A stretch of 64,000 bases of DNA from a virus (lineage: Duplodnaviria > Heunggongvirae > Uroviricota > Caudoviricetes): the IMG/VR virus record IMGVR_UViG_3300031354_000001, positions 11,120-75,119 of that record. One strand, given 5' to 3'. Positions 2,239-31,469 of the stretch are shown here, one piece after another. Position 1 is the stretch's first letter; each line of letters begins with the position of its first letter. The position numbers and the translations under genes were made by a program. The notes under the pieces were generated by a model. It made no database searches. It was not told where the DNA came from and saw only the letters and a list, made by a program, of their open reading frames with translations.

Positions 2239-2308
2239 ATGAAAGCTACCATAAATGGTAGTGCCATAATAGCTCCTACAATTAATAATATTAATAGTAA
2301 ATTTTCTT

Positions 2309-6180: not shown

Positions 6181-6210
6181 TGTTGTGCCTTATCCAGGTC
6201 TTTTATTATT

Positions 6211-6444: not shown

Positions 6445-6452
6445 TGGTATCT

Positions 6453-7603: not shown

Positions 7604-7751
7604 GGTTGCCTCGGATAATCTAAATAGATTTTAGATTCATTGTCGTGGTTTATGATCTGTTCAATATCCATTGGTCCCTCATAACCCGCAATGAATATAA
7701 TATCATTTTCTTGTGGTAATTTAGATAATTTTTCAATTAATTCTTCGACAG

Positions 7752-8090: not shown

Positions 8091-8488
8091 TATAAGTTTT
8101 GCCTTAAGTATATTATTGCTGATTTTAGATATTCAATATTATCATCAAATAAACCTAATCCTTTATTGCATTTATGGCACAACAAACCCCTAATTTTATT
8201 TGTTTTATGGCAATGATCTACGGATAATTTATTTAAAGAGAATTGATTCCTTTGTGTTTCTTTCTTTCCACATATAGCACAAACTCCATTTTGTTTCTTC
8301 AATATTAAATTATATTTCATTAATGTTATACCGTGATTATTCATTAGACTATCTTCTAGCCTATTTCTCCCCTTAAAACAATCTATACACCAGCTATAGA
8401 ATCCATCTTTGCTTCTTATATCTTCATAAAATTTATAGTATTCTTTAAATTTCTTACATTTAGAGCAAATCTTTCCATTATCACTCAT
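8090..8488 (-). CDS. endonuclease VII-like (HNH-type) recombination endonuclease
   Basis: DHCHKTNKIRGLLCHKCNKGLG matches the Endo VII signature (DH.H.T..vRGLLC..CN..LG), plus upstream Cys pairs. Confidence 0.65.
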   Translation of the reverse strand: MSDNGKICSKCKKFKEYYKFYEDIRSKDGFYSWCIDCFKGRNRLEDSLMNNHGITLMKYNLILKKQNGVCAICGKKETQRNQFSLNKLSVDHCHKTNKIRGLLCHKCNKGLGLFDDNIEYLKSAIIYLRQNL

Positions 8489-9738
8489 TTTAAAATCACA
8501 CCATAGCGTTTAGGTCCAAGATGTTCCTTATCAGAACGCAGCTTGATATGCAATCTCCAAGTGACCCCTCGTTCCTTATGGACACCATGAACAATTTGTG
8601 TTGGCTCGGTAAATGATGATAGACTATTATAAACATACGGGCTTGTAGCCACCCATGTACCATTAATAATTGTCTCTCCATTAAGTGCAGCTTGTGTTGC
8701 CGGATTGTGGAAATGTCCAAAGCAAAAATACTGTACACCGCGATCAACAGCACAGTTCAATGCAGCTAATCTTCGTGTTTTCCGCTCAATGCCGTACCAA
8801 GGTATATTGTTAAATGACTTAATATCGTCGCCATGAGCTACATGAAAACCATGGCCCTCAATATCGAGATTAATTGAAAATGAATCAGGGATTATAAATT
8901 CTACGTTTTCTAAATCACGGGCATAAGCAAATGCTGTCTCTGCAACTAAGTAATCCCAGTTGTTTTTTGGATTATTGTGATCCTTCTTCGGTGTCCGACG
9001 ACCATGATTACCGGGAGTATAAATGATTTTAATATCGTCGAAGTAAGCCGCCAAGTCTCTAAGCATCAATGCGTGCATTTGGCCTGTTGATAGACAGTTC
9101 TTGAATGTATTCCGATGCTCGGTATGATCTTTGGCGTCATGGATTTCACCAGAAACGTGGTCACCATTTGCAAGAATAAATAGTGTACCAAAATTATACT
9201 GCTTTAGTGTATGCTGCGTGAATTTAATTAAGGAATCAACATACACTTCGGCACGCCGTAATGCAATACGCTCATTGTAATTCTCAAGGCCACCGACCTG
9301 ATGTGGCAGAACAATATCACAAGCATGTTCATCGGATAAGTGCATTACCAATGACTCGTGAATCTGTTTATCTTTCGTTTTTATTCGTGGTGCACGAGGT
9401 AGTGGCCTTATTGGCTTTACAGTGTCATGAATCTCTTCAGCAAGCGCTTGATAAATACTATTATTGCGTTGGGCTGCTTGATATGATTTTCTTAATGCTG
9501 CCCGTTCATCTTTCAGAGCAATTACTTTGGATTCCAATTCCAATATTCTTGCATTTGTTGGATCGGCCTTCGGTTTCACTTCCTTTGGTCTTTGAATCTT
9601 GTGCTTCTTCTTAACATTACCTATAGTACCTACGCTTACACCATGTTCATCGGCAATAGTTTTATGGCTCTTGGTTGTAGTTTCAAGTGCGTCCTTGATT
9701 TTATTCTCAGTCTCTTTACTCAACTTCTTTGTTGGCAT
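8485..9738 (-). CDS. HTH-containing metallophosphoesterase (calcineurin-like)
   Basis: N-terminal HGVSVGTIGNVKKKH (HTH-like); C-terminal LANGDHVSG, GNHGRR, HFHNP metallophosphatase motifs. Confidence 0.6.
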   Translation of the reverse strand: MPTKKLSKETENKIKDALETTTKSHKTIADEHGVSVGTIGNVKKKHKIQRPKEVKPKADPTNARILELESKVIALKDERAALRKSYQAAQRNNSIYQALAEEIHDTVKPIRPLPRAPRIKTKDKQIHESLVMHLSDEHACDIVLPHQVGGLENYNERIALRRAEVYVDSLIKFTQHTLKQYNFGTLFILANGDHVSGEIHDAKDHTEHRNTFKNCLSTGQMHALMLRDLAAYFDDIKIIYTPGNHGRRTPKKDHNNPKNNWDYLVAETAFAYARDLENVEFIIPDSFSINLDIEGHGFHVAHGDDIKSFNNIPWYGIERKTRRLAALNCAVDRGVQYFCFGHFHNPATQAALNGETIINGTWVATSPYVYNSLSSFTEPTQIVHGVHKERGVTWRLHIKLRSDKEHLGPKRYGVILK

Positions 9739-9750
9739 TTTCCAATTCCT

Positions 9751-11592
9751 CTACTCATGATTTAATCCTAATGCATTTGTAACATCGCCCATTGTCAATG
9801 CTTGCAATTCACGCTTCTTCTGAAGATTCTTTAAGACCAAATAATCGGATTCTAAATGCAAAATATCAATAATTGTGGCACCACGTTGATTGTCCATGCC
9901 GGCACGATGAATACGGTCTTCAGACTGTATTCTTGATTCCGCATTAAAATCATTTGAATAGTATACGATGGCCGGTGAGGCTGTTAATGTAATACCCATA
10001 CCAGCAGCACCAGGCTGGCCAATAAAAGCCATCCTCGGATGCTCATTTAATTTCTCTTGGAAATTAATAAGTGGCTCACCCTCAACTGAACTATGCCAAC
10101 CGCGGCCATCGACACGAATAAATTCCCATCCACAGTCCTCAGCAATTTGAACACAACGATCGACACTTCCAGTAAATCCGCCATAAATAACTAAGCGACC
10201 TACATCCGAATATTCGTCGAAAAGGTCTCTTAGTGCCTGATCTTTCGGTGTCTCAATCTGCTCGACTGTTCGTGTGAATGTATCCCTTTTTCCTTTTCCA
10301 CCACAGCCATCGCATAGCACGGTTTCATCAAGAATAAGGTCTTGAGGAAGTGAATCCTCTGGAATATTTGCGTCGAGCATTGGATTAGGAATTGTGCCTT
10401 TTCCTTTGCAAATTGGACACTTCTCTTCACCTGATTTTGTTTGTACATATTGGAAGCCATCGGACAGTTCCCTTAATAATACTAATGATTGTGCTACAGT
10501 TCTTGAACCAGCGACAATAGCTTTTGCAATATCTTTGATTTTCTTCGATGGTTCAAGTTCAATCTTACGATAGATTTTATCTGGTAGATCAAGACAATCT
10601 TTTTTAAATTGCACAAGAACTAGGCCAGACATTCTTTTGTAAAGCCGTTCTACCTCATTTACTGATGGCTCATATTCGTGTTCACGATCAAGATCAGTCT
10701 CTAGATGCTCTTCTTCTAGCTGACCACAAACCTTACACTTTCTACAATCGTCGAGCCACGAAACTATCTTCGGATAAGCCTGTCCATATACATTTTCTTC
10801 TTGTTTTATTATTGCCATAGAGCCTCGAAAAATATGATAACTTCCTTCCTTCAAGAACCCTGGACAGGCTATCCGGGCTTGGTTCCACCAATCCAAAGGA
10901 CTCTTTGGTGCTGGTGATCCTGATGTTAAAATCACGTAACCATCATGATCCTCACGAGCACCAGTTGCTAATAGATAAGCAGCTTGACTTCGTTGGGCTG
11001 TTGGTGATTTTATTCTCGATGATTCGTCAAACCAAATATTTGGTGCAGGACGACCGTCCTCCCAGTTTTTAACCAATTTGGTTAATTTTTCATAAGTCAT
11101 CATTTCGGGATTGACTTTACAATCCCACTTCAATAATTCAAGCTCAACAGCTTTAATTGCTGATCGTGGTCCAACATACCACCAATCATCACGCTTGGAT
11201 CGCTCCATTACCTCAATACCACAAAGACTCTTACCGCAACCCATCTCTGCCGCTAGGATCGCACGCTTGCGTGTAAGAAGAAAATCAGCGCCTAGACGTT
11301 GATGCTCAAAGAGTGGACGCTTATACTCGTGCTTGATTATTTCGCTATCATAGGCAGCATACGGATTTCTGCCTTCGAGATAAGCAATCTGGAAGAGATT
11401 ATGTGGACAATTATCGACACGCCACATCTTCCTTGGAGGATCTTCTCTGCCAAGCCACTTTCGCCCTTCCATCATCCTTACTTCATTTACTAATGCTTTA
11501 TTATATCTGAATTTAAGATAGATATAATCTTCGTCATAAGCCATCTGGACGGGGACTTTATACTTACCGGCTTTGAATTTTGTGTCGATCAT
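9751..11592 (-). CDS. SNF2/DEAD-like superfamily-2 helicase with zinc-ribbon inserts
   Basis: Walker A AAEMGCGKSL, motif II FDESSR, C-terminal helicase-C region; CPICKGKG and CDGCGGKGK zinc ribbons. Confidence 0.65.
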   Translation of the reverse strand: MIDTKFKAGKYKVPVQMAYDEDYIYLKFRYNKALVNEVRMMEGRKWLGREDPPRKMWRVDNCPHNLFQIAYLEGRNPYAAYDSEIIKHEYKRPLFEHQRLGADFLLTRKRAILAAEMGCGKSLCGIEVMERSKRDDWWYVGPRSAIKAVELELLKWDCKVNPEMMTYEKLTKLVKNWEDGRPAPNIWFDESSRIKSPTAQRSQAAYLLATGAREDHDGYVILTSGSPAPKSPLDWWNQARIACPGFLKEGSYHIFRGSMAIIKQEENVYGQAYPKIVSWLDDCRKCKVCGQLEEEHLETDLDREHEYEPSVNEVERLYKRMSGLVLVQFKKDCLDLPDKIYRKIELEPSKKIKDIAKAIVAGSRTVAQSLVLLRELSDGFQYVQTKSGEEKCPICKGKGTIPNPMLDANIPEDSLPQDLILDETVLCDGCGGKGKRDTFTRTVEQIETPKDQALRDLFDEYSDVGRLVIYGGFTGSVDRCVQIAEDCGWEFIRVDGRGWHSSVEGEPLINFQEKLNEHPRMAFIGQPGAAGMGITLTASPAIVYYSNDFNAESRIQSEDRIHRAGMDNQRGATIIDILHLESDYLVLKNLQKKRELQALTMGDVTNALGLNHE

Positions 11593-11749
11593 AGTTTTCG
11601 CTTATATTTATTGCATATTGTTGTTCTATTAACTGGAATTGAAAAGTTCAATTCTAAGTTGTAACATCTTCCAATATGATAATACCTACAATTGGTACAG
11701 TTATTTGAGATTATTCTGAGGTTATACTTTTCAGCAAACTCTTTTTCAA

Positions 11750-12295
11750 TCATTTTGACTCCAATAAGTATGTCCCATCAGAAAGCTTTTTATTATTAAA
11801 TGATTTGAAAATCATTTTTAATCCCATATTAGAAAAATACTCTAGGCAAATGTTAGCAATATGCCTCAATTCTGTGCTCGTATAAGATATATTATTAAAT
11901 GCACAAATTGAGGCTATACTGTTTTTCCACTCACCTAGAGTACCTGAGACTACCGCCGATCGGTATGATTTTATCTTCGTTTTTGAGGATATGACATTTA
12001 ATGTCGTTTCCTCATTTAGCTTCATAATTACTACCGACGGAGCCGTTATTAAAAAACCAAAGAAAAGGTGTTCGAGAGGAATTGAAGCTAATGATAATGA
12101 TTCTAGCGGTTGCTTAGTATTACCGCGGAATGATTCTAAGGCTATAATAAATTTAGCCATAGTATTAAGATCGAGTTTGCAACCATCAAGAACCTTAGCT
12201 GGGTTGGAATTGGTCAAATCATAAGTGTCCTTTATGAAGGAATCCCACATTATTGAGGGACCAATTATAGGTTTTACACTTGATTTGAATTCCAT
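11750..12295 (-). CDS. hypothetical protein
   Basis: 181-aa ORF. Confidence 0.4.
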   Translation of the reverse strand: MEFKSSVKPIIGPSIMWDSFIKDTYDLTNSNPAKVLDGCKLDLNTMAKFIIALESFRGNTKQPLESLSLASIPLEHLFFGFLITAPSVVIMKLNEETTLNVISSKTKIKSYRSAVVSGTLGEWKNSIASICAFNNISYTSTELRHIANICLEYFSNMGLKMIFKSFNNKKLSDGTYLLESK

Positions 12296-12300
12296 TTTAC

Positions 12301-12492
12301 TTACCGCTCTTTCTCAATCGCTTCCAGTGCTGGTTTTAAGTAAAAATCAATAAAGTCAATGTCGCTTGTATAAGAAACAGCTACATAAATATCACTGTTC
12401 GCATCTCTTACAATTACCGCTGCTTCGCCATCAACAAACTTTGATTCTAAAATCAAAGAGTGCGTTGCTAGAAATTCAAGAATCTCTTTCAT
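12301..12492 (-). CDS. hypothetical protein
   Basis: 63-aa ORF, coupled. Confidence 0.3.
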   Translation of the reverse strand: MKEILEFLATHSLILESKFVDGEAAVIVRDANSDIYVAVSYTSDIDFIDFYLKPALEAIEKER

Positions 12493-13124
12493 CGCTCACG
12501 ATCGTCCTCTTCAGCAAGCTCTACTTCCTTTACTGGAGGATTCTTGAATTGCTCTACCTTGGCCTTAATCTCATCGAGATCAGGCATTGTTAGTGGTGTC
12601 GAGCACTCAATAACAACTGGACCCTGCCAAATATACTTTCCAGCCTTGATCGTTTTTGATTTTAATGTAGCCGCACAACGTAGAAGTGGCTCCATCTTAC
12701 GTGCTTCACGACGTGCCGTCTTCGAGGACATAAAGAATGTGACATACTTATTTACGTCTGGCACATATAGTAAAAATTCAGGACCATACATGGCACCAGA
12801 ATCTTTTACACCTGACTCCATTTTAATCCTCTTGAATAGATCAGATGTTGGGTCGAAACTTTCGACGATTGGTTCTTCACCAGTGTGCAAAGCCTTTGGC
12901 CTCCAAGCTAGGATAGCTACATCGACTTTATCACCGAGATCAATAATATCATCATCGACAGGAATACCATAATGATTGGCTGGAATCTTACCTTCAGCTA
13001 CCGCATTTGATTTTCCACCATAGAGTTGAATACGTGAAAGAAATTCAACATCAGATGCTGTCATTTCTTCAAAATTTGATAGGTCTCCACCGCCGACATC
13101 TTGAGGTACTAATTCGTTTGGCAT
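12489..13124 (-). CDS. hypothetical protein with acidic C-terminal tail (SSB-like?)
   Basis: 211 aa ending ELAEEDDRER. An acidic tail is reminiscent of phage ssDNA-binding proteins, but no motif was recognised. Confidence 0.35.
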   Translation of the reverse strand: MPNELVPQDVGGGDLSNFEEMTASDVEFLSRIQLYGGKSNAVAEGKIPANHYGIPVDDDIIDLGDKVDVAILAWRPKALHTGEEPIVESFDPTSDLFKRIKMESGVKDSGAMYGPEFLLYVPDVNKYVTFFMSSKTARREARKMEPLLRCAATLKSKTIKAGKYIWQGPVVIECSTPLTMPDLDEIKAKVEQFKNPPVKEVELAEEDDRER

Positions 13125-13153
13125 GAATTTTTCTCTTTAATGAAAATGAATAC

Positions 13154-13178
13154 CACGGGGAGTACAATACTCCCCGTG
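13154..13178 (-). terminator. perfect 11-bp stem / 3-nt loop hairpin downstream of the ParB-like gene
   Basis: CACGGGGAGTA-CAA-TACTCCCCGTG. The minus-strand transcript continues GUAUUCAUUUUCAUU (U-rich). Confidence 0.45.
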
Positions 13179-13218
13179 ATTATAAACTCAAATTATCTTA
13201 TTTAAACTCAAACAATCC

Positions 13219-14259
13219 TTACTTCAACGCTTCCTGGGCTGCGGCTGCGGCTGCGGCGGCTTCCTCTGCACGCTTCTGGGCTCGCTCGGCGGCCCTCTTC
13301 TGCTTGGCCTCTGTGAGACGCTGTTGCTTCTCATTGTAGGCGGCAGTTTGTGCAGCGACACTGATTGGATCAAGATTGATTGCAAATGCAACACCAAGGG
13401 CGAAACCGTCCTCGGGAGTCTTGGCACCAACCTGGCGACAAAGTTCGGGACCAACTTCGTTGGTTGAGAACTCAGTCTTTAGCTCACCGAGCTTACGGAC
13501 ACGAGCCTGGGGCTTGAACTCAGCCTTCTCAGCCTTACGACCTTCACGAGCAGCATCCTTTAGCTCCTTCGCACGAGCCTGAACCGTTGGTGCAAATTCA
13601 TCCGTATTCATCTGCATCGCTTGATCGACATAATTGACCTGCTCTTCGTGAGGAAGCCGTGACATGGCGACTGCATTTGCTACAGTGATTTTACCATCAT
13701 CAACGAGGTCTTGGACCGACTTCTCAAGCTTAAGAAGATTGAGTCGTTGAGAAACCCATGAAGGGCTCTTGCCAAGCCGTGACGCCATCTCTGAAATGGT
13801 CATCGTAGGATTGAGGGTAAAAATCCGTTGTAGCTGCTTAGTGTACTCGACAGCCTTGGTCTCAACCTTATGAATATTAGTCATAAGTTGAGCTTCAAGT
13901 GTCTCTACCTTGTCAAGATCAACGACATTTACCGGAATTGATTCTAGACCTGCATCGACCGCTGAAGTGTAACGGTGAAGACCATCGACAATCTCATAAT
14001 ACTCAACAGTAGTGCCATCAACATCCTCTGTTCGACGACGAACAGAAATCGGATTCATAATACCAATGCGTGCAATTGAATCACGCAAACCAACATAATC
14101 TTCGCCTTCCTTGTCCACGCCACGTAGGGCGACTTGATTCTCACGGATCGAAGAGAGTGGAACTACCTTGACTTCTGGCGTACCCATAATGTCTCCAAAA
14201 ATTAAAAAAGATTTAGTAAGATACAATTTGGCCAAATTGATAATAAACTCAAAACCCAA
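13219..14259 (-). CDS. ParB/KorB-like protein with HTH (copy 2)
   Basis: VVPLSSIRENQ ... YEIVDGLHRYTSA (ParB N-domain, DG.HR); ISEMASRLGKSPSWVSQRL (HTH); Ala-rich GC-rich C-terminus. True start is probably the internal MGTPEV. Confidence 0.6.
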   Translation of the reverse strand: MGFEFIINLAKLYLTKSFLIFGDIMGTPEVKVVPLSSIRENQVALRGVDKEGEDYVGLRDSIARIGIMNPISVRRRTEDVDGTTVEYYEIVDGLHRYTSAVDAGLESIPVNVVDLDKVETLEAQLMTNIHKVETKAVEYTKQLQRIFTLNPTMTISEMASRLGKSPSWVSQRLNLLKLEKSVQDLVDDGKITVANAVAMSRLPHEEQVNYVDQAMQMNTDEFAPTVQARAKELKDAAREGRKAEKAEFKPQARVRKLGELKTEFSTNEVGPELCRQVGAKTPEDGFALGVAFAINLDPISVAAQTAAYNEKQQRLTEAKQKRAAERAQKRAEEAAAAAAAAQEALK

Positions 14260-14333
14260 ATAAGCTTACCAGCCAAAGTCCTATAAACACAACGTTTTTA
14301 CTCAGCGTGCGATTATAAAATCCTTATTATAAA

Positions 14334-14561
14334 TAACGTAGGTCGGATTCGAACCGACTATGGCACTTTCACCAGCAATGTTTCGGATTCCTCAAAGCCA
14401 ACGTATCAAGAGCCGTGTCTTCGTCGGTAGCTGGCCTGGACTCCTAAACCGTTGTGCGGTATGCCTCCGCTATCTGGGCTCTACCAGAACTGTGCTCATT
14501 GTCCTTCGCTCATCCTTTCGGACGACCTCGCTAGGATGCGTTTCCCACACGCCGCTACGTC
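14334..14561 (-). ncRNA. tRNA-like structured RNA element, ~228 nt (T-arm plus acceptor; possibly an interrupted tRNA)
   Basis: Minus strand carries a canonical T-arm GTCGG-TTCGAAT-CCGAC followed by the acceptor 3' strand CTACGTT. A complementary GACGTAG, followed by a D-arm-like GCGT-GTGGGAA-ACGC, lies ~220 nt upstream in the RNA. Local GC is higher than the flanks. Confidence 0.3.
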
Positions 14562-14572
14562 TAATCCCATTT

Positions 14573-14598
14573 GATTATAAAATCCTGATTATAAAATC
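14573..14598. promoter_or_regulatory. two adjacent GATTATAAAATC 12-mers (member of a palindromic motif family)
   Basis: Exact 12-mers at 14573-14584 and 14587-14598. The same or reverse-complement motif occurs at 14311-14322 and 14987-14998. Confidence 0.4.
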
Positions 14599-14650
14599 AA
14601 ACCTGAATTTCCAATAAAATCAAAATCAATGTGATACCTCTCCCGCTATC

Positions 14651-14920
14651 TATACTATCCGTTTTCGGGACGTTCACGTCCCAATAAAAACCTAAACAGG
14701 AAAATATTTGCCTAAGTATAATGTCTCCACGCAATTGACCAGAAGACAATACAAACAGGTTAGTAAGTCTCTTTATATAAATACTGTATCATTTTCTCTT
14801 TTCTCTTATATATGCAAGAGCAAAAAAGCTGTATTGTTGTCAAGTCTAATTAGGACAATGGTTTAAATTTTCAGAAAGCTGTTTTTGTTGTCTATTTTTG
14901 TCTGGAAAACGGATAGTATA
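14651..14920. repeat. 16-bp perfect inverted repeat pair bracketing ~240 bp of the control region
   Basis: TATACTATCCGTTTTC at 14651-14666 and GAAAACGGATAGTATA at 14905-14920. Inner hairpin GGGACGT-TCA-CGTCCC at 14667-14682. Confidence 0.5.
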
Positions 14921-15017
14921 TGTAGAGGGACACTTTATAATTGATTTTGATTTTCTTGCCACTGCTTGAATCCCTCTTTCAGAGTTGATTTTATAATCAA
15001 AATCGAGATTTAGCATC

Positions 15018-17705
15018 ATGGCAACTAAGACCCAGGCTATCAAAGCCTTCTTAACTGATTTTACTATCAGTGATCTAGCTGCATTGTATGACTATGACAT
15101 GGAAGTGCAAGTCAATGTAGCACAAGATAATGGTGAACCCATTACACAAAAATCCGGTTTTACTGGACGTATGTGGCGTGGATATACTGATGGTATACAG
15201 ACATGGAAGCCATTCCGAATCCCTTGGAATGCCGCAAGTGAACCAGAGTATACTGATAGTAATCTCAATTGGTCATTAAAAGATCATGCCGAAGGAATTG
15301 GTATGACTGGCTGGTGTTGGAAAGAAGCTGTATCCAAGTGGGTAGGTTTCGATTTCGATGCTATTTCTAACCATGCTGATGGTCTTACAGTAGCAGAACT
15401 TCAAGCTGTTAAGGATGAAGCCTACAAGATTCCCTGGATAACGATTAGAAAATCAACCAGTGGAAAGGGCTTACATCTTTATGTCTTACTTGATGATATT
15501 CCAACAAAAAATCATACCGAGCATTCTGCTCTCGCAAGAGCTATTCTTGGTAAGATGACTGCCGCCACTGGATTTGAATTTAGTGGTAAAGTCGATGTTT
15601 TTGGTGGAAATATGTGGGTATGGCATCGTAAGATGCGTGGTACTGACGGGTTAAAGTTAATAAAACAGGGCGATATTCTTAGAGATATTCCTGTTAATTG
15701 GATGGATCATGTACCCGTAATAAAGGGACGACGCCGTAGAAATCTGCCTTCATTCGTTGAAGAAGAAAACGTATCTACATTCGAGTGTTTAACTGGTCAG
15801 TATCCACACGTAAAACTTGACGAAGGTCACAAGAAACTTTTAGATTATTTGGAAGAAAATCAATGCCAATGGTGGTATGATCCAGATAATCATTTGTTAG
15901 TTTGTCATACAGCAGATTTAAAGAGAGCACATCATGATCTTAACTTCCGAGGGATATTCGACACTAAAGCAACTGGAAAAGATAAACCGGACCATAACGT
16001 ATTCTGTTATCCCGAGGAACATCCTTCCGGCTCTTGGGTTGTTAGACGTTTTACACAAGGAATCGACGAAGCACCTACATGGAGCCAAGACTCTGCCGGA
16101 TATACCAGATGCTACCTAAATAAAGAGCCTACGTTACAGGCTGTCGCAGGTGCGTTTCATGGAATTGAAGATGAAAAAGGAAATTATTTCTTTAATGAAG
16201 CTGAAACTGCTGCTACCGCGGTTGAAAAATTGGGCGCCAATTTAAATCTACCGAACTGGGCCGGTAATCGAAAAGCGATTATAAAATCACACAAGGATGG
16301 ACGACGTATTATTGTAGAAATTTCGAAGGAATCAAGCGATAATCCCGCTCAGATGGTTGGATGGAAAGAGGATAAAGGATGGTGGAAACGAATTTTTAAT
16401 GCGAGATTGTCAGCACCAGACACAACAGAAGTACAAAATTATGATAATTTAGTGCGGCATCTTGTCACACATAAAGGTGATGACGCTGGTTGGGTACTAA
16501 AAGCAGGCAATCAATGGCATTCAGAACCACTTACACACCTAAAAATAGCTTTAAAATCATTCGGATTACAGGATAGTGAGATAAATAAAGCACTTGGTAA
16601 GTGTGTAATGGAGAGTTGGACCCTTGTAAATAAACCATTTGAGGATGAATTTCCGGGAAATAGGGAATGGAATCGTGATGCCGTTCAATTAAAATATCTT
16701 CCACAGCAAAATGAGCCATTTATTCACCCAAATTGGGACAAATTATTGGCACATTGTGGTGATGGCCTTGATGAAGGTGTTAAAAATAATGGATGGTGTC
16801 AAGCAAATGGCGTCTTAACTGGTGCGGATTATTTGAGATTATGGATTGCTTCAGTATTTCAAGCACCAAAAGAACATCTCCCTTATCTATTTTTGTATTC
16901 ACCAGAGCAACAGACAGGAAAAACTACACTCCATGAAGCAATAAAATTGCTTATAACATCAAGTGGATACATGGATGTTAAAGCGGCACTAATAAATAGT
17001 GCCGGTTTTAATGAGGAAATGAAGAATGCTGTTATTTGTGCTGTCGATGAATTAGATTTACGGCAGAATAAATTCGCTTATAATCGAATGAAGGATTGGA
17101 TTACTGGCGAAGAGATTCTTATTCATCCTAAAGGCAAGACGCCTTATATGGTGAGGAACGTAGCACACTTCATTCATACTGGAAATGATCCTAATGAATG
17201 CCCAGTGCCATCGGAAGATTCACGAATAATGGTTATTCGGGTTCCTCCACTTGATCCATTGGAGATGGTTCCTAAAGATGAATTATTTGTTCTCTTGGAA
17301 AAAGAAGCAGAAGCATTTTTAGGCACATTATTTTCAATTGAGATTCCCCCATGTCGTGATCGTTTAAATATACCTGTCGTTGAAACAGACGAAAAAGGCC
17401 ATAGTCAGAAATTAAATCGTTCTTCACTTGAAGAATTTATTGACGAATGCTGTTTCTTAGCTCCAGGAGAGACGATAAAATATAATGATTTTTGGCTAAG
17501 ATTTCAAGATTGGCTTGATCCGAATGAAGTGGCATCATGGTCTAAAATTAGGATGGGACGCTCACTACCGAGCAAGCATCCAAAAGGCCGTGTAGCATCA
17601 GATGGAGGTCAATTTTATGTAGCTAATTTATCATTTATTAAACCAGATACACTTGGGTCATCATATTTAGTCCTCAAAAAAGACCAATTGGTATTGGAGG
17701 GCTAA
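15018..17705 (+). CDS. primase-helicase (PrimPol-like N-domain plus SF3/D5-like P-loop helicase)
   Basis: WVGFDFDAIS (PrimPol DxD motif); Walker A YSPEQQTGKTTLHEA; Walker B ICAVDELD; 895 aa. Confidence 0.75.
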   Translation: MATKTQAIKAFLTDFTISDLAALYDYDMEVQVNVAQDNGEPITQKSGFTGRMWRGYTDGIQTWKPFRIPWNAASEPEYTDSNLNWSLKDHAEGIGMTGWCWKEAVSKWVGFDFDAISNHADGLTVAELQAVKDEAYKIPWITIRKSTSGKGLHLYVLLDDIPTKNHTEHSALARAILGKMTAATGFEFSGKVDVFGGNMWVWHRKMRGTDGLKLIKQGDILRDIPVNWMDHVPVIKGRRRRNLPSFVEEENVSTFECLTGQYPHVKLDEGHKKLLDYLEENQCQWWYDPDNHLLVCHTADLKRAHHDLNFRGIFDTKATGKDKPDHNVFCYPEEHPSGSWVVRRFTQGIDEAPTWSQDSAGYTRCYLNKEPTLQAVAGAFHGIEDEKGNYFFNEAETAATAVEKLGANLNLPNWAGNRKAIIKSHKDGRRIIVEISKESSDNPAQMVGWKEDKGWWKRIFNARLSAPDTTEVQNYDNLVRHLVTHKGDDAGWVLKAGNQWHSEPLTHLKIALKSFGLQDSEINKALGKCVMESWTLVNKPFEDEFPGNREWNRDAVQLKYLPQQNEPFIHPNWDKLLAHCGDGLDEGVKNNGWCQANGVLTGADYLRLWIASVFQAPKEHLPYLFLYSPEQQTGKTTLHEAIKLLITSSGYMDVKAALINSAGFNEEMKNAVICAVDELDLRQNKFAYNRMKDWITGEEILIHPKGKTPYMVRNVAHFIHTGNDPNECPVPSEDSRIMVIRVPPLDPLEMVPKDELFVLLEKEAEAFLGTLFSIEIPPCRDRLNIPVVETDEKGHSQKLNRSSLEEFIDECCFLAPGETIKYNDFWLRFQDWLDPNEVASWSKIRMGRSLPSKHPKGRVASDGGQFYVANLSFIKPDTLGSSYLVLKKDQLVLEG

Positions 17706-17894
17706 ATGATGTTAAAAGAAATTCTCGATAAATTGAAACCAGAAGAACGTGCAAGACTTATGCACGCATTTGAAAATCATTTTAGTCAGCATGTAAAATT
17801 AGAAGGTAATAAGTTCATTGGAGTAAATATAACAGGTAACAATTTTGAAATCGAAGAGCAAGCGGGAGTATGGTCGTATGGTAATGTTAGATAA
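17706..17894 (+). CDS. hypothetical protein
   Basis: 62-aa ORF immediately after the primase stop. Confidence 0.3.
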   Translation: MMLKEILDKLKPEERARLMHAFENHFSQHVKLEGNKFIGVNITGNNFEIEEQAGVWSYGNVR

Positions 17895-18465
17895 ACCGAT
17901 TATTATTGCATTTGGTTACAAAAAAGGTACTGGTAAGAATACCATTGCCAAGTTTCTTAGCACGCACATTAATTGTAGTTGTGCAAAATTAGTAGTTAAA
18001 GAAGTAAGCTTCGCTGCAAAATTAAAGGATATTTGCTATCAATTATATTCCTGGGCCGGATTAAAACGTGGAATTTATTATGAAAGTCATCGTGAAGAAA
18101 AAGAACAGATTCTACCGAAGTTAGGAGTATCTCCAAGAGATATCTGGATTGAAGTTGGAAACAAATTAAGAGAAGTATATCCAGGAACATGGATTGATTT
18201 TGCTCTTAATGGAGTAAAAGCTGATGTTATAATCATAACAGATATGGGTTTCACAAATGAAGCAAAAGCCATATTAGAAAAAGATGGATATCTTATTAAG
18301 ATGGTTCGATCTGGCCTTGAACAAGGAACCGATGGACGTGAAGTAGAACTGGATTCATGGACACAATGGTATATGACTATTTTAAACAATGATTCATTGG
18401 AAGACTTAAATGAATCAGCATTAATGTTATGGGATAAGATAAATGCAATACATGAAGTCTGCTAA
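17845..18465 (+). CDS. dNMP kinase-like P-loop protein
   Basis: IIIAFGYKKGTGKNTIAKFL resembles the phage T4 gp1 dNMP kinase N-terminus (P-loop). True start is probably the internal MVMLDKP near 17878. Confidence 0.45.
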   Translation: MKSKSKREYGRMVMLDKPIIIAFGYKKGTGKNTIAKFLSTHINCSCAKLVVKEVSFAAKLKDICYQLYSWAGLKRGIYYESHREEKEQILPKLGVSPRDIWIEVGNKLREVYPGTWIDFALNGVKADVIIITDMGFTNEAKAILEKDGYLIKMVRSGLEQGTDGREVELDSWTQWYMTILNNDSLEDLNESALMLWDKINAIHEVC

Positions 18466-18776
18466 TATTTATTGTGTTGATGGTCCACTAAATGGACAAG
18501 TAGTTAATGCTGATTTTTCCTTAAAGAAAATTGAAGTACCATTGACATCAAACCATTTTTATAAAAGTGCTGTTTATTTAGTCTCTGGAAAATTTACTGC
18601 TCTCGGAGAGTATATAGCAATCTTCTCACACTGCAAGAAACGATGATTGAATATAGGTTGTCAACAAATTGGAGAACATGGAGGTTATGTTTTGATTTTT
18701 ATATCAGTTATGAATTTGAAGAAATAGGTATTGTATTAGGTCTTGGACCGATTTACTTATATTTTGCGATATTAAA

Positions 18777-19334
18777 ATGAATAGACTAAAATATAATCGT
18801 TGTTATCTATGCGGACCAATGGAATATAGCAACTCCGTTGGACAGGATTGGCGTATTGCTCTCCAGAAAGAGCTAATGGATTTGGAAATAATTTTCCTCG
18901 ATCCAACACATAAGCCTACTCATATCGGAATCGAGAATGAGCAGACACAAGGCATAATGAAGGAATTACGTGCTAAAGGTGATTACAAACTTCTTAGAGA
19001 TATGGTTCGTCCAATAAGATCATATGATCTTAGGATGGTCGATGTTAGTGATTTTCTTGTCGTACATCTGAATCATGATGTGCAAACAACAGGCACATGG
19101 GAAGAACTATATCTAGCAAATCGGCAGAAGAAGCCAATTATTCTTCACTATTCTCAAGGCAAGGAACAAGTACCGCTGTGGCTTTTTGATGTTATTCCAG
19201 AACAAATGATGTTTGGTTCTTGGAAAGAAGTATGTAAGTATGTACGTCATATTGCTAAAGACAAACATATTGATGATTTAAACCGATGGAAGTTTTTTGA
19301 TTTCTCACTTTGTAGGAGTTTTGATGAAAGTTAA
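18777..19334 (+). CDS. nucleoside 2-deoxyribosyltransferase-like protein
   Basis: CYLCGPMEY (compare YLAGP.F) and QTTGTWEELYLA (compare DSGTAFEIGYA, catalytic Glu) match the NDT/DNPH1 superfamily. Confidence 0.5.
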   Translation: MNRLKYNRCYLCGPMEYSNSVGQDWRIALQKELMDLEIIFLDPTHKPTHIGIENEQTQGIMKELRAKGDYKLLRDMVRPIRSYDLRMVDVSDFLVVHLNHDVQTTGTWEELYLANRQKKPIILHYSQGKEQVPLWLFDVIPEQMMFGSWKEVCKYVRHIAKDKHIDDLNRWKFFDFSLCRSFDES

Positions 19335-19488
19335 AGAATTACAAGAGATTTTAAAATCAGTTGAACCAGAGGCCGATGTTATTATAAATCTTGGATTAGC
19401 TGGTATTTACGAAATAGTAGAAACTAAATTCCAAGAATCTGATGGTTATGGTTTTGGTACAGTGTTTTTGGTCGGAGCAGAACTATGA
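19297..19488 (+). CDS. small protein, paralog type A (copy 1)
   Basis: MKVKELQEILK N-terminus shared with 19657 and 19983. Confidence 0.4.
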   Translation: MISHFVGVLMKVKELQEILKSVEPEADVIINLGLAGIYEIVETKFQESDGYGFGTVFLVGAEL

Positions 19489-19667
19489 GTAAATTTATAC
19501 TATTAACAGATGAGAAAAATAGAGAAATAATTCTAAATAAACGAGAAATTAAAAGTATAAGAGAATGGGATGGTGTTACTGGTATAACAACTGTCGATTG
19601 TACAGGTCCTACATTATACGTAATAGAAAGTATAAAAGAAATTTGGAGTCAGATTAATGAAAATTGA
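19485..19667 (+). CDS. small protein, paralog type B (copy 1)
   Basis: MSKFILLT ... EIWSQINEN; paralog of 19811. Confidence 0.4.
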   Translation: MSKFILLTDEKNREIILNKREIKSIREWDGVTGITTVDCTGPTLYVIESIKEIWSQINEN

Positions 19668-19818
19668 AGAATTAAAAACAATATTAAATAGATTTAATCC
19701 ATCATTTGAAGTGTATCTAGTTGTTGAAGAAGATGAAATACCATTAGACTATGTTACGTGGGATACCGATAAAAAAGATTTCTCTTCTACTAATGGAAAG
19801 GTAATATTCCATGGCTAA
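19657..19818 (+). CDS. small protein, paralog type A (copy 2, 53 aa)
   Basis: Hand-translated MKIEELKTILNRFNPSFEVYLVVEEDEIPLDYVTWDTDKKDFSSTNGKVIFHG. Not in the ORF track because it is below 60 aa. Confidence 0.35.
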   Translation: MKIEELKTILNRFNPSFEVYLVVEEDEIPLDYVTWDTDKKDFSSTNGKVIFHG

Positions 19819-19993
19819 ATTTATTTTAGTTACATCACCACTAAATAATGGAAAAAGCATAATTAATATCAAAACAATAGATTCTATATTTCCTTGGAAA
19901 GATAGCGGATGTAGAATATATCATATGGATAAAGAAATAATGGATGTAAAAGAAACAATTGAAGAACTTTGGGAGCAATTAAATGACAATTAA
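19811..19993 (+). CDS. small protein, paralog type B (copy 2)
   Basis: MAKFILVT ... ELWEQLNDN. Confidence 0.4.
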   Translation: MAKFILVTSPLNNGKSIINIKTIDSIFPWKDSGCRIYHMDKEIMDVKETIEELWEQLNDN

Positions 19994-20174
19994 AGAACTA
20001 AAAGAAATATTAGAGAATTTTGAAATATTGGATGAACTCCATATTTTTATAAATAATGGAGTAACAAATACTCCTTTTGAGAAAATAACTATTGAAGAAA
20101 CTGTACTCAATACTAAACGTGGAGAATTCATAGCAATAAATTCTAATGATAATAGGGTAATATTCCATGGCTAA
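19983..20174 (+). CDS. small protein, paralog type A (copy 3)
   Basis: MTIKELKEILE ... RVIFHG. Confidence 0.4.
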   Translation: MTIKELKEILENFEILDELHIFINNGVTNTPFEKITIEETVLNTKRGEFIAINSNDNRVIFHG

Positions 20175-20775
20175 ATCAGCAGTGCATCTGAATGGTAATA
20201 TTCTATGTGCTATTGATGTGGAGACAACAGGATTAAATCCGGGTCATCACGAAATATGGCAGATAGCAATTGTACCAATTGATTCTAATGGAGTACCAAA
20301 TAAAAAGATTTTACCATTCTACCAAGATATTAAAATCCAATTTCCTGATAGAATAAATAAACGTGCAGTGGGTTTGAATCGCGGAGAATTTGCTGCACGA
20401 CAAAAACGTGCAATGGACCCATTTACTTGTGCTGATCTATTGGACGAATGGTTTCAGAGATTAGATTTACCAATCTACAAAAAGATTGTACCACTTGCAC
20501 AAAATTGGCCATTCGACCGATCATTCCTTTATGATTGGCTTGGACCAGCATCATTCAATGATTTTTTCCATCCACATTATCGTGATACGATGGCCGCAGC
20601 AATATTCTTGATGGACCTTGCCGACCACAAATGCGAGCGGGTAACAATGTCTAAATTCAATATGGCGGAACTATGCAAGAAAATGAACGTCACGAACCAA
20701 AAGGCTCATGACGCTCTTCAAGATTGTCTAGCTACCGCAGCAGTTTATAAAGAATTATTGAAATATGCATCTTAA
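20167..20775 (+). CDS. DEDDh 3'-5' exonuclease (DnaQ-like)
   Basis: LCAIDVETTGLNP (Exo I); C-terminal HDALQDCLATAAVY (Exo III with His). Confidence 0.65.
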   Translation: MAKSAVHLNGNILCAIDVETTGLNPGHHEIWQIAIVPIDSNGVPNKKILPFYQDIKIQFPDRINKRAVGLNRGEFAARQKRAMDPFTCADLLDEWFQRLDLPIYKKIVPLAQNWPFDRSFLYDWLGPASFNDFFHPHYRDTMAAAIFLMDLADHKCERVTMSKFNMAELCKKMNVTNQKAHDALQDCLATAAVYKELLKYAS

Positions 20776-20790
20776 TTGGTTTCAATTAAA

Positions 20791-23616
20791 TTAAGCTTCA
20801 GCTTCTTCTTCAAGTATGGTTGTAGTAGATTTATCACCATCTTGACGATCATATCCAATAGGATCTGTACTAGATTCACATCCACCATCATCACTTCCAC
20901 CATCATTAAATATGGGATTCCATCCGGCTGAATATGGAACTGTTTGGCCAGGAATCCCAGATTTAGGTAAGGACGTATTCAAAGAATCAGCAAAATCTCT
21001 TGCTGCCGCTTCAGTTTCAAATACATATTTCTCATAACACTGAAGCAAATCGCCAGTAGCTGGTGTCCCATAGCAGCTTTGTACTGGTGAGCAACATAGT
21101 CCAGATTCACTTGGGTGTGTACAATCAATTGTTATCCAAGTTACACATACCATAGACATACATGGATGCTCTTCTGAGTCTAATTCTTCTGGTTTTGGTA
21201 ATTGATCCATTGGATCAGTTTGAGTACCAGAATCATCTTGTCCGCCTTCTTCATCTTGATCGAGTGGATCAGTCTCATAATCACCATCTTGTACATCACT
21301 TTGAGGCAATATATGAGTATTATCAGAATCTGGTGACTCTGGTCCAGGAGAATTTGGACCTTGTTTTACTGTAGCTTTAAGTGTAGGTTCTCCAGGTGAA
21401 ATATCACCAATATCAGATGGCTTTACATTGCCTCGGCTAGTTTTTCTCCTATCAATATCTGATTTTTCATTTTTAGAATATTCACTATTTTCAGTTTTTT
21501 TATTTTTATTGGCATCAAAATCTGGCCAATTTATTCCAGTTACTGTGACATATGGCTGTGGATTACCGTCATTTTCATTTATTATTTCTACTGGCTTATC
21601 CCAACTATAGATATCATCACCATCATAATCTATTTCTGATGGGTAATAAGTATATTGTGATATATCAGATGGATATGCAAAATCATATGCATCCATTTCT
21701 CCTGACCTTACTGGGCACCATAATTCAAAATCTATACTTCGATTATCTGAGTTATATGATGCTTTATCTACACGACAAAGAATTGAGCTATTAGATACAA
21801 AATCGTTGCTCAAATCTAATGTGACATAATCAAGCGTCTCTACATTTAATAAGTGCAATGGAGTTTGAAAGCTTACTTTTTTCCACGTATTTGAATATCG
21901 TATGGACCAAAATGAGGCACTTTTTGTTACACCATCAATATAATTGAAAGTATAATAGTCATAATCTTGTTTGTGTAAACCATATTTATTATTATTATTT
22001 CTTATAATAACATGGCCATCCGCACTCTGCATTGGGGATTGTGTCCATTTACAATCCATCTTAGTCACTAAATCCTCTGTAGGAGTATGTGTCAATTTTA
22101 ATGTGCCTTGAAGAATATCGTCTTCAGTAATTGTAGCTACGGATGGTTGTATCTCAGGCAAATATTGTAAATAAAAGACATCATTTTTTAAATAAATAGA
22201 GCATCTTGCTTGCCAGGCTATTTCTTGTAAAGCTGTTAGTGCATTAGGACGGTCATATATGGTAAAATTCATAGGATAATTTTCTACTTTACTTTCTACG
22301 TGATCGAAAGAAGTAGAATCATAAGTAAAATCAGTATATGTATTGATGATATATTTTAAAATATCAACAGTATTCGGACCAACACTAGAGCGAAATGTTA
22401 CATAAATATCATCGCCCCAATTTTGATTCGTATTAGATGGTGATGTGTGCATTGTCAAAGTTACCACATCAAATTGTCCCCATGATTCAGTTTGTATAGT
22501 ATATAAATCACTTGACAAATTCTGTAAATATCTTTGACCATATAATGTGCCCCATACAGTGACTTTTTCAACTGTACCTGGAACTATACTTATTATATAT
22601 TTCTGTGGCTGTAGCGGTGATATTTGTTTTATTTGTGTTCCTGGGCCAAAATATTTATATCCACAGTTATCGCCACTAATTGTGCCATCAGGCAAAAAAC
22701 CACTCTTATTATTATAATTTGTTCTCCAATAGCCACCACCTATTCCGGGCGGATCTTTTCCTGCACATTGATCTTCATGTCCAGTTATTTGAAAACCATT
22801 TCCATTCCAATAACCCCATATTTTAAACCCACCCAAATCCAATGTAGCATAGCCGCTAAAATTTTCGGCTCCATATACATATATAAAATCAGTTTCTGTT
22901 GCTAATTGTTGTTGATAAGTATTGCTAACTGAACCTCTTCTACCTGCTATTAATTCTACTGCATCAAGCGTAAAATATTTTGTAACAAATGATAATAAAA
23001 TACCATATAAAGAAGCTTTCTGTCCTAAATGTGTATCAGCAAATCCTACACCTGTTGCAGTTACAGCTTTAGGTACTTCAGTTACCCTTAAAGCTTTGCT
23101 GTGAATTGTAAGACCAAAACACATTGGCCATGGTTGACCAACAAATGCTTCTGGTAAATCTATAAATTGACCTTCTTCTGGTGAAAATCCTATTTCTTTA
23201 TCTTCCAACTGAGATAATACTGAGAATGATACTGTGCGATCATTTTCATTCCATGTTATTGGAGAGTTAACTTTTCCTTTAAAAAGTAAGAATCGATCAG
23301 ACAAATCTAACTCTTCAAAGTATTGATAAACCCATACGTCTTTTAAATGAAGATCATAATTATTCATCAATTCTTTGATTGTACCATCAGTATCATCAAG
23401 TGTTACTGATAGTGATTGCGAATTTGATGACCCAGTTATATTTATAACTGCATCGAGATCGCTTACTTCAAGAATTTTGCCTGGAATAGAATCTACCGCA
23501 CGATCAGAATATTGTAAAACATCTGTGCCATTCCATGCAATATCTAAAATTGTAATTGGCTCTGAGCCTTTTTTCTCAGCAATCTTAGCTAGAGCATTTG
23601 CACTTAAAGTTCTCAT
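20791..23616 (-). CDS. large virion/tail structural protein with acidic Cys-rich C-terminal region
   Basis: 941 aa at the distal end of the tail gene string. C-terminal ~250 aa is D/E/G/S/P-rich with clustered Cys. Confidence 0.45.
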   Translation of the reverse strand: MRTLSANALAKIAEKKGSEPITILDIAWNGTDVLQYSDRAVDSIPGKILEVSDLDAVINITGSSNSQSLSVTLDDTDGTIKELMNNYDLHLKDVWVYQYFEELDLSDRFLLFKGKVNSPITWNENDRTVSFSVLSQLEDKEIGFSPEEGQFIDLPEAFVGQPWPMCFGLTIHSKALRVTEVPKAVTATGVGFADTHLGQKASLYGILLSFVTKYFTLDAVELIAGRRGSVSNTYQQQLATETDFIYVYGAENFSGYATLDLGGFKIWGYWNGNGFQITGHEDQCAGKDPPGIGGGYWRTNYNNKSGFLPDGTISGDNCGYKYFGPGTQIKQISPLQPQKYIISIVPGTVEKVTVWGTLYGQRYLQNLSSDLYTIQTESWGQFDVVTLTMHTSPSNTNQNWGDDIYVTFRSSVGPNTVDILKYIINTYTDFTYDSTSFDHVESKVENYPMNFTIYDRPNALTALQEIAWQARCSIYLKNDVFYLQYLPEIQPSVATITEDDILQGTLKLTHTPTEDLVTKMDCKWTQSPMQSADGHVIIRNNNNKYGLHKQDYDYYTFNYIDGVTKSASFWSIRYSNTWKKVSFQTPLHLLNVETLDYVTLDLSNDFVSNSSILCRVDKASYNSDNRSIDFELWCPVRSGEMDAYDFAYPSDISQYTYYPSEIDYDGDDIYSWDKPVEIINENDGNPQPYVTVTGINWPDFDANKNKKTENSEYSKNEKSDIDRRKTSRGNVKPSDIGDISPGEPTLKATVKQGPNSPGPESPDSDNTHILPQSDVQDGDYETDPLDQDEEGGQDDSGTQTDPMDQLPKPEELDSEEHPCMSMVCVTWITIDCTHPSESGLCCSPVQSCYGTPATGDLLQCYEKYVFETEAAARDFADSLNTSLPKSGIPGQTVPYSAGWNPIFNDGGSDDGGCESSTDPIGYDRQDGDKSTTTILEEEAEA

Positions 23617-25723: not shown

Positions 25724-25727
25724 TAGG

Positions 25728-31462: not shown

Positions 31463-31469
31463 TTTGAAA

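Follow-up and report, generated by a model that had tools for sequence, protein, structure and literature searches.

Why should a short palindrome recur throughout a phage genome, within genes as well as between them? The question is raised by a 64,000-nucleotide stretch of IMG/VR virus record IMGVR_UViG_3300031354_000001 (positions 11,120 to 75,119; here called the window), which has a G+C content of 37.7% and covers most of the genome of an uncultured siphovirus-type phage. A first-pass annotation had flagged a family of 12-bp palindromes, clustered in the control region between two divergent operons, as apparent sites of a dimeric DNA-binding protein, either a phage repressor or activator operator or a parS-like site for one of the ParB/KorB-like proteins. 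That interpretation is partly supported.

The palindrome is overrepresented against every null used (dinucleotide shuffles, Markov models of orders 1–5, synonymous-codon resampling, codon permutation, and viral DNA of the same G+C). There are 10 exact copies of GATTATAAAATC versus 0.06 expected from dinucleotide shuffles and 17 distinct sites of GATTWTAAAATC versus 0.12, placing exact 12-mers more than 100-fold above expectation, and GATT-N4-AATC occurs 30 times versus ∼3.5 in Markov models of order 1–4. The first-pass annotation had suspected an excess over chance and proposed enrichment statistics against shuffled sequence; with these run, the motif is far above composition-matched expectation and the excess had been understated. 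All four exact copies of GATTATAAAATC noted in the control region are present (14311, 14573, and 14587 on the + strand and 14987 on the - strand) and the sites at 50395, 50504, 50661, 50701, 52133, and 53342 match their description. The named exact 12-mers exist, but six had been missed (822, 8043, 16277, 48780, 50701, and 59759) and three positions shift (59749 to 59759, 58422 to 58412, and 58634 to 58633), the remaining coordinates being right.

The real unit is a 14-bp palindrome, tGATwwTAwwATCa, of which the flagged 12-mer is the core. In the iterated symmetric position weight matrix (PWM) from which this consensus was derived, the G, A, T, central TA, A, T, and C positions are conserved at 90–96%, and there is also conservation of the flanking T/A. 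At a PWM score of at least 12 there are 72 non-overlapping sites in the 64 kb versus ∼2.5–3 in order-3 Markov nulls, and at a score of at least 14 there are 58–59 versus 0.65–0.8. Site density is 1.12/kb, whereas 48 viral loci that are unrelated but similar in G+C have 0.036/kb. The 8-mer TAAAATCA occurs 73 times, in 35 cases with the symmetric partner GATT at no more than one mismatch (5.3 expected), and inverted half-sites GATTTT/AAAATC are nearly confined to a single palindromic spacing. Among the palindrome families overrepresented in the window, TGATT-N4-AATCA / TGAT-N6-ATCA is by far the strongest. Each site consists of two 4–5 bp arms with centers ∼10 bp apart and a TA step between them, a geometry expected of sites for a dimeric helix-turn-helix (HTH) protein. 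The exact dyad symmetry and suitable arm geometry are consistent with the dimeric-protein site that had been suggested.

Several other patterns were sought. Gaps between sites are as random as in a uniform model (coefficient of variation 0.94 vs. 0.98), so regular spacing is rejected, and there is no strand skew of the kind seen for Chi or KOPS. No convincing second palindrome family that could serve other ParB paralogues emerged; CTGT-N7-ACAG occurs 7 times versus 0.5 expected, but its copies are heterogeneous and all lie in genes. The exact 14-mer yielded only single chance matches across IMG/VR, and a literature search found no relevant paper containing the 12-mers. Separately, certain palindromes are strongly avoided across the window: TGATCA occurs 3 times versus 30 expected, GCGC 26 versus 68, and CTGCAG, AGTACT, GTCGAC, and GGATCC not once versus 7–9 each. 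This looks like restriction-site avoidance, and TGATCA stands out since the enriched motif has TGAT and ATCA as its arms.

The divergent region does hold a genuine cluster, with 5 sites in 830 bp (6/kb), but 55 of the 72 sites are inside predicted genes. The other 17 are intergenic, though intergenic DNA makes up only ∼10% of the window. The right-hand control region carries 2.3 sites/kb, replication genes ∼1.3/kb, and structural genes 0.68/kb.

Within genes, the evidence for selection on the DNA sequence itself is clear. When synonymous codons are resampled with every protein sequence kept, the half-site 8-mer is found in coding DNA 53 times versus 11.9 expected (4.4-fold) and full 12-mers 8 times versus 0.37; permuting codon order predicts even fewer copies. 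Copies occupy all stop-free frames on both strands, and the absence of orientation bias (15 sense vs. 19 antisense) is what a two-fold-symmetric binder would predict. The caveat that in-gene copies reflect the peptide ILKS does not hold up. That peptide is encoded at 19347, 58412, and 58633, whereas 40052 encodes DFKI by frame reading, and a coding artifact is ruled out by codon nulls, which are exceeded 4- to 10-fold, together with the spread over frames and strands. Association with gene starts is a weak excess only (11 vs. 6 sites no more than 60 nt inside starts, p ∼0.05), and the motif is no general marker of starts. Amino acids change where sites arise, as in DFTI in the window versus VFTV or AFTK in relatives, and sites are gained via synonymous and nonsynonymous changes alike. 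In a codon alignment of the primase gene from four genomes, sites are shared at columns 115, 421, 477, and 645 and most are unshared; therefore density, not position, is conserved in genes. Two adjoining small paralogous genes on the - strand at 58390-58841 (74 and 76 aa), both ending in ...VKILKSGD, each carry a copy directly 5′ of the Shine-Dalgarno sequence of the next gene.

The motif is also conserved across a widespread, uncultured clade. No DNA-level relative of the window was found in 50,697 phage records, where protein matches are distant (no more than 32% identity), and a search of 185,579 bacterial and archaeal genomes for prophages or hosts returned no relative of the primase. A search with ParB-like-1, encoded beside the divergent region, gave 281 matches, with 52–100% identity among the 120 matches listed and many on 60–93-kb contigs. 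Related metagenomic phages whose ParB protein is 53–74% identical have the same palindrome at ∼1/kb; they include IMG/VR and metagenome contigs in which both the primase and ParB-like-1 are ∼70% identical. By PWM, nine related loci have 0.4–2.2 sites/kb, while nulls give at most 0.37 sites per locus. Four more distant genomes (ParB-like-1 53–70% identical) retain the gene order primase, divergent region, ParB-1, OB-fold protein, helicase, exonuclease, ParB-2, and polymerase, and in each of them TGAT-N6-ATCA is the first or second most enriched palindrome (for example, 16 vs. 1.1–1.6 expected). The relatives derive from varied metagenomes and are binned with unrelated taxa. In two of them the primase-helicase is ∼1,210 aa instead of ∼895 aa (L013 5197-8841 and L016 5882-9517); that of L013 matches an intein-splicing domain, and the primase of the window is without such an insert.

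Outside genes, particular positions are conserved. When seven genomes are compared in a common orientation, most of the divergent region differs in sequence, apart from a few anchor features. A copy is located 16–60 nt upstream of the ParB-like-1 start in all seven, and in six a second copy overlaps the primase start or is no more than 30 nt upstream; in L013, inserted sequence shifts the primase-side copy ∼540 nt away. The position of the 14986 copy is kept in L002, L003, L014, L016, and L008. Just inside the anchor copies are tandem direct half-sites (AAAATCAAWATCA and its mirror image), and inside these arrays is a conserved promoter-like box, (G)GTAGTATA. Three exact boxes, GGATAGTATA, are present in the window, each with motif copies and then an operon downstream. 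From ∼10–16 nt 3′ of each box there are half-site arrays or a perfect palindrome, and at two of the three, additional palindromes follow ∼50–70 nt downstream; the tandem pair at 14572..14599 is downstream of the leftward box. Motif copies are at ∼+10 to +90 of three putative promoter boxes, and most sites are far from any box. In L003, TTGACA or TTGTCA precedes the box by 18 nt; in the window, the -35 region is poor, so that a promoter role there is only putative. Leader copies read TGATTTT-ATAATCA along the direction of transcription in nearly all cases in the seven genomes. In the second control region, the half-sites at 54027-54042 and 54158-54173 bracket a consensus sigma70 promoter.

The divergent region has two further peculiarities. 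A GC-rich island on the - strand (14325-14572; 248 nt, ∼52% G+C) is absent from all relatives and lies between the two exact members of a 14-nt direct repeat, GATTATAAAATCCT (14311-14324 and 14573-14586), that includes the motif. Read on the - strand, its ends are joined by a 7-bp acceptor-like stem, and it has a D-arm-like hairpin and a perfect T-arm, GUCGG-UUCGAAU-CCGAC. ARAGORN and Rfam did not recognize it as a tRNA, tmRNA, or Rfam family, homology searches found no homologue, and its fold is no more stable than that of shuffled sequence (z = -0.45). The + strand open reading frame (ORF) at 14360-14617 encodes an implausible protein. The island may be a tRNA-like noncoding RNA cassette inserted at a motif copy; in the same slot, L003 has a different insert with a 66-aa ORF, likewise between motif copies. 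The center of the region (14700-14900) has a paralogue ∼40 kb away at 54560-54760 and an orthologue at 3450-3650 of L003, with the blocks CCTAAGT, TTGACCAGAAGAC, ACAGG, and CTAAGTCCCTT in common. The duplicated sequence may be an origin or second control region, or may encode a small RNA.

Which protein could read these sites? Pfam and PHROGs scans of ∼55 window proteins detected three ParB-like proteins and, among the proteins scanned, no other HTH or sequence-specific DNA-binding protein. The proposal of a ParB/KorB-like binder thus stands insofar as these are the only detectable candidates in the window, and we infer their link to the motif. The best solved relatives of ParB-like-1 and ParB-like-2 are Spo0J/ParB, Noc, and KorB; for ParB-like-1, matches include the Pfam KorB domain and the KorB structure 8qa8. 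The genes for both proteins remain syntenic throughout the clade. Among 28 ParB-like-1 homologues, the recognition helix KSPSWVSQRL hardly varies, nor do the N-domain motifs IRENPVALR and DGLHRY; such constancy fits an unchanged DNA target but does not prove it. The conserved 211-aa neighbor of ParB-like-1 has a tandem-OB fold like that of the phiC31 gp3 recombination directionality factor and not an HTH.

We propose, with a probability of about 0.55, that the motif is the binding-site family of a dimeric phage-encoded DNA-binding protein, most probably a ParB/KorB/Noc-like one. A dimeric phage binder is suggested by the symmetry, the 14-bp size and arm spacing, the leader positions, and the unoriented in-gene copies, and ParB-like-1 is a candidate that adjoins the control region. 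Within the ParB-side, primase-side, and structural operon leaders, high-affinity copies and tandem half-site arrays ∼10–90 nt 3′ of the three boxes would allow bound protein to act as an operator repressor or a roadblock, and the binder would autoregulate the ParB-like operon. The ∼55 graded copies in coding DNA, at ∼1/kb and with selection on density and not positions, would load or recruit the same protein along the entire genome, much as KorB and Noc do, possibly for silencing, counter-silencing, compaction, or protection. Tentatively, and with the odds against it, one can go further and suppose that in a ParA-less, apparently lytic lineage a ParB/KorB/Noc-type protein uses ∼70 loading sites to coat or organize the whole genome, for example as a transcriptional gate, as a VirB-like counter-silencer of host nucleoid proteins, or as a shield in replication and packaging.

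The parS-like site suggested in the first-pass annotation fares less well. A parS centromere is unlikely given ∼70 scattered sites and the lack of any ParA among the proteins scanned, though ∼11 kb of the 75-kb source contig is outside the window. An immunity operator for a Cro/CI-type repressor is disfavored, as no integrase, excisionase, or Cro/CI-type HTH protein was detected in the window.

Several points weigh against our proposal. At ∼70 sites per 64 kb, the motif is far denser than in any described KorB, Noc, or parS system. The conserved CTP-pocket motif, canonically GERRxRA, is altered to DGLHRYT(S/A)A in ParB-like-1 and GHRRFTA in ParB-like-2, with some arginines retained and others replaced, and therefore clamp-like sliding is uncertain. 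The core of the motif is constant across the clade, so there is no covariation to tie it to ParB-like-1 or ParB-like-2. The binder could be a protein of another kind because many window proteins are without a detectable domain, and the same ∼11 kb of contig could encode it. The GGATAGTATA boxes, themselves only putative promoters, are without a good -35 element in the window, and the consistent orientation of leader copies is not what a purely symmetric operator would predict.

One alternative is that the motif is itself a phage-specific promoter, with a -10-like TAwwAT in TGATTT-TATAAT-CA that drives middle or late transcription; host RNA polymerase would recognize it either with the help of a phage factor or with no -35 element at all. 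A -10-like hexamer is present at the center on both strands, and at 42 of the 72 sites the top strand matches TAWWAT; leader copies in the seven genomes are 16–60 nt 5′ of first genes with TATAAT or TATTAT toward the gene, and a sigma70 scan caught the 13177 copy. Nevertheless, -35-like matches upstream of the sites equal those of 533 control TAWWAT hexamers (mean 2.59 vs. 2.57; at least 4 of 6 matches in 17% of sites vs. 14% of controls), and the 19 antisense versus 15 sense copies in genes would imply widespread antisense transcription. Copies at 58411 and 58632 and in L003, L008, and L014 abut or overlap a Shine-Dalgarno sequence or the start codon, so close that a leader would not fit. Consensus sigma70 promoters and GGATAGTATA boxes exist apart from the motif, neither a phage RNA polymerase nor a sigma factor was detected, and exact dyad symmetry is not a trait of promoters, all of which make a promoter function unlikely. 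We also consider it unlikely that the binder is a host factor (a nucleoid-associated protein or global regulator, for instance) that the phage lineage recruits or titrates. Such a factor would account for a TGAT-N6-ATCA core that is unchanged while phage proteins have diverged to ∼53% identity, and an AT-rich center with a TpA step, as in this motif, is typical of sites of DNA-bending host proteins. But the spacing is unlike that of FNR (TTGAT-N4-ATCAA), Fur (TGATAAT-N-ATTATCA), or CRP (TGTGA-N6-TCACA). No relative of the phage was found in the 185,579 bacterial and archaeal genomes, and a single shared host regulator is disfavored because the relatives come from such varied metagenomes and taxonomic bins.

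Improbable, too, is a role as target of a phage enzyme that modifies or nicks DNA (a methyltransferase, a T5-like site-specific nickase, or a ParB-nuclease/PAPS-reductase system). The pattern GAT-N6-ATC is bipartite, some relatives encode a D12-class adenine methyltransferase, and the window encodes a PAPS-reductase-like protein (49119-49790) and ParB_N-domain proteins. There is, however, no methyltransferase among the window proteins scanned, the conservation of the central TA and flanking T/A goes beyond the usual readout of such enzymes, neither enrichment nor conserved leader positions are expected of their targets, and known phage nick sites are strand-specific and not palindromic. We regard as distinctly improbable that the copies are replication elements, either origin iterons for the adjacent primase-helicase or priming sites on both strands. 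The divergent region, where inverted tandem half-site arrays flank an AT-rich center in an iteron-like manner, does adjoin the primase-helicase gene, a second such region is at ∼54.0–54.8 kb, and one half-site per ∼1.75 kb per strand corresponds to the size of an Okazaki fragment. Yet an origin leaves ∼55 in-gene palindromes unexplained, priming sites need no palindromy, no strand skew or polarity switch is seen along the window, and at a distance from the replication genes, one perfect copy separates a promoter-like box from the structural operon. Finally, the family can hardly be a functionless by-product of AT-rich composition, codon usage, or paralogous peptides. Three copies do encode ILKS, two of them in paralogous gene ends, and one is fixed by the conserved ParB peptide DDGKIT, but all nulls are exceeded 4- to 200-fold and amino acids change to create sites. 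A dimeric, probably ParB/KorB/Noc-like, phage protein is the reading that we retain.

Table 1. Genes, candidate binding proteins, motif copies, half-site arrays, and promoter-like boxes in the window
Feature	Coordinates	Strand	Remarks
Replication module	139-14187	-	family-A DNA polymerase, ParB-like-2, exonuclease, endonuclease VII, SNF2-type helicase, ParB/KorB-like-1
In-gene copy TGATTTTATAATCG	821..834	.	holds exact 12-mer
ParB/Noc-like protein 2	6453..7370	-	ParB_N + HTH_ParB; second candidate, kept in relatives
In-gene copy CGATTTTATAATCG	8042..8055	.	holds exact 12-mer
TGATTATAAACTCA	13177..13190	.	gap just 3′ of ParB-like-1; overlaps terminator-like hairpin
ParB/KorB/Noc-like protein 1	13219..14187	-	ParB_N + HTH_ParB + KorB domains; leading candidate binder
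Divergent region	14188-15017		830 bp between - strand replication module and + strand primase operon
Palindrome TGATAATAAACTCA	14238..14251	.	50 nt upstream of ParB-like-1 start; position kept in relatives
Palindrome CGATTATAAAATCC	14310..14323	.	122 nt upstream of ParB-like-1 start; score 14.1
Tandem palindromes TGATTATAAAATCC + TGATTATAAAATCA, 14 bp apart	14572..14599	.	scores 16.4 and 19.7
Tandem direct half-sites AATAAAATCAAAATCA	14613..14628	+	just 3′ of leftward promoter-like box (box on -)
Promoter-like box GGATAGTATA	14651..14660	-	points at ParB-like-1 operon; orthologous GTAGTATA boxes in relatives
Promoter-like box GGATAGTATA	14911..14920	+	points at primase operon
Mirror-image tandem half-sites (TGATTTTGATTTTCTT on +)	14942..14957	-	just 3′ of rightward box
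Palindrome TGATTTTATAATCA	14986..14999	.	18 nt upstream of primase ATG
Rightward operon	15018-20775	+	D5/DUF5906 primase-helicase, dNMP kinase, RNase T-like exonuclease
D5/DUF5906-type primase-helicase	15018..17705	+	first gene of rightward operon; 14986 copy upstream, which may gate it
Primase-gene copy CGATTATAAAATCA	16276..16289	.	L008 copy at same alignment column
In-gene copy AGATTTTAAAATCA	19346..19359	.	encodes EILKS
Structural genes	20791-50372	-	tape measure, major head protein, portal, large terminase, PAPS-reductase-like protein
In-gene copy TGATTTTAAAATCT	30920..30933	.	
In-gene copy TGATTTTAAAATCG	40051..40064	.	
In-gene copy TGATTTTATAATCG	48779..48792	.	10 nt inside gene start
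PAPS-reductase-like protein	49119-49790		
Gene-poor region rich in repeats	50373-55259		small genes beyond
Perfect palindrome TGATTTTAAAATCA	50394..50407	.	16 nt 3′ of third box; 21 nt 5′ of ATG 50372; score 20.7
Third exact promoter-like box GGATAGTATA	50424..50433	-	points at structural-gene operon
Perfect palindrome TGATTTTAAAATCA	50503..50516	.	intergenic; score 21.4
Copy pair TGATTGTAAAATCA + TGATTTTATAATCA, 26 nt apart	50660..50713	.	intergenic
TGATTATATAATCA	52132..52145	.	84 nt downstream of ParB-like-3 stop
ParB-like protein 3, weak	52229..53203	-	ParB_N below Pfam cutoff; motif copies either side
TGATTTTAATATCG	53341..53354	.	138 nt upstream of ParB-like-3 start
Tandem half-sites AATAAAATCAATATCG	54027..54042	+	second control region
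Tandem half-sites AATAAAATCAATATCA	54158..54173	-	inverted partner of 54027-54042
Five further copies, second control region	54189..55128	.	starts 54189, 54349, 55042, 55097, 55115
TGATTTTAAAATCT	58411..58424	.	3′ end of gene, directly 5′ of Shine-Dalgarno of next gene
Paralogous copy	58632..58645	.	context same as 58411
TGATTTTATAATCG	59758..59771	.	holds exact 12-mer
Remaining ∼40 PWM sites, score at least 12	1..64000	.	scattered

The gene-poor right-hand region has further repeats and signals. At 50848-51215 there are 52.6 tandem copies of a G-rich heptamer, GGGGAGC/GGGGCGC, inside a nominal ORF (50791-51222) that is probably noncoding; a G-quadruplex is possible because every G-run is on the + strand. 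Short perfect tandem arrays occur at 50715-50780, 51817-51859, 53715-53747, and 54040-54094, and the array units are TGGCCTC (x4.6), GGCGTGA (x5.4), TTCGGAGG (x5.4), TCGG (x8.2), and TCGGC (x11). The TCGG and TCGGC arrays are in leaders, directly 3′ of two perfect sigma70 consensus promoters, TTGACA-N16-TATAAT, on the - strand (53754-53781 and 54103-54130), and therefore the host probably uses classical -35/-10 promoters. The first points at a gene at 53419-53703 (-) for a small protein that matches the cyclic-phosphate processing receiver domain cREC_REC (E = 8e-25), and the second at an 83-aa gene (53755-54006). Situated behind a consensus promoter, the cREC_REC gene may be an early antidefense gene.

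How does the motif compare to known systems? ParB-parS systems, whether of P1, N15, or chromosomes, likewise pair a ParB-family protein with a palindromic site, and in phage N15 centromere repeats are dispersed over the genome. Such systems have one to few sites plus ParA, to which the site number and in-gene density of the window are a misfit, and by analogy KorB operators or Noc sites appear to be a better model than a parS centromere. KorB of the IncP plasmid RK2 has a ParB-family HTH and is not only a centromere protein; it is a global repressor and autoregulator. Its operator OB is a 13-bp palindrome, TTTAGCSGCTAAA, with 12 copies on 60 kb, some beside promoters, some hundreds of base pairs off, and some far from any. 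The window resembles RK2 in having a dispersed palindrome on a ∼60-kb replicon plus a KorB-domain protein (ParB-like-1), but has ∼70 sites that are mostly in genes, an altered CTP-binding motif, and no detected partner like KorA or IncC (ParA), and it derives from an apparently lytic phage and not a plasmid. Noc of Bacillus subtilis is a ParB paralogue without a ParA that spreads from ∼70 sites (NBS), each a 14–16-bp palindrome. Here too a palindrome of the 14-bp class is scattered replicon-wide, genes included, and Noc structures are among the best matches of ParB-like-1 and ParB-like-2. Those ∼70 sites, however, are spread over 4 Mb and not 64 kb, and the role of Noc in membrane tethering and division control has no obvious phage counterpart.

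Among phages, the stoperators of Cluster A (bound by L5 gp71) and the C1 operators of P1 are dispersed asymmetric repressor sites of temperate phages. They share with the motif their number and dispersal, and they often lie 3′ of promoters, where elongation is stopped by the bound repressor. Unlike the sites described here, which are palindromic and unoriented in genes, stoperators are asymmetric and aligned with the direction of transcription. Such immunity systems have a dedicated repressor, but in the window neither repressor nor integrase was found. Stoperators also come up in the report of the closest described phenomenon (PMC4351075), a 17-bp dyad repeat, TGTTCGGNNNCCGAACA, of Cluster O mycobacteriophages (Corndog and relatives). 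Corndog and the other Cluster O phages have 34 copies, intergenic and coding, mostly off promoters and unoriented, of unexplained function and with a dimeric binder presumed (PMC4351075). In both cases a dyad repeat occurs more than 30 times in a ∼70-kb siphovirus genome and is conserved among related phages that are apparently non-temperate and encode a ParB-like domain protein and a primase/polymerase. The sequences are unrelated, GC-rich with a 7-3-7 structure in Cluster O and AT-rich and 14 bp here, and searches with the primase or ParB-like-1 (tblastn) matched no Mycobacterium phage. Corndog arms are invariant and ∼1/3 of sites are in genes, versus graded sites and ∼3/4 here, and Corndog gp90 has ParB_N only, with no detectable HTH_ParB. 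The present motif is thus denser, more often in genes, and accompanied by clearer candidate proteins.

Dispersed phage dyad repeats have therefore been seen before without explanation, and the window provides a second, independent, and much denser example. DNA-level selection in genes, conserved anchor sites, and two conserved ParB-like candidates make it testable, and the motif would be a simple sequence signature with which to spot this phage clade in metagenomes. If one of the two candidates binds the motif, it would illustrate how a virus can turn a ParB-family protein to control of its whole genome with no part in partition. The more tentative coating or organizing role would put the ParB fold to a use so far undescribed for phages and might also explain the repeats of Cluster O.

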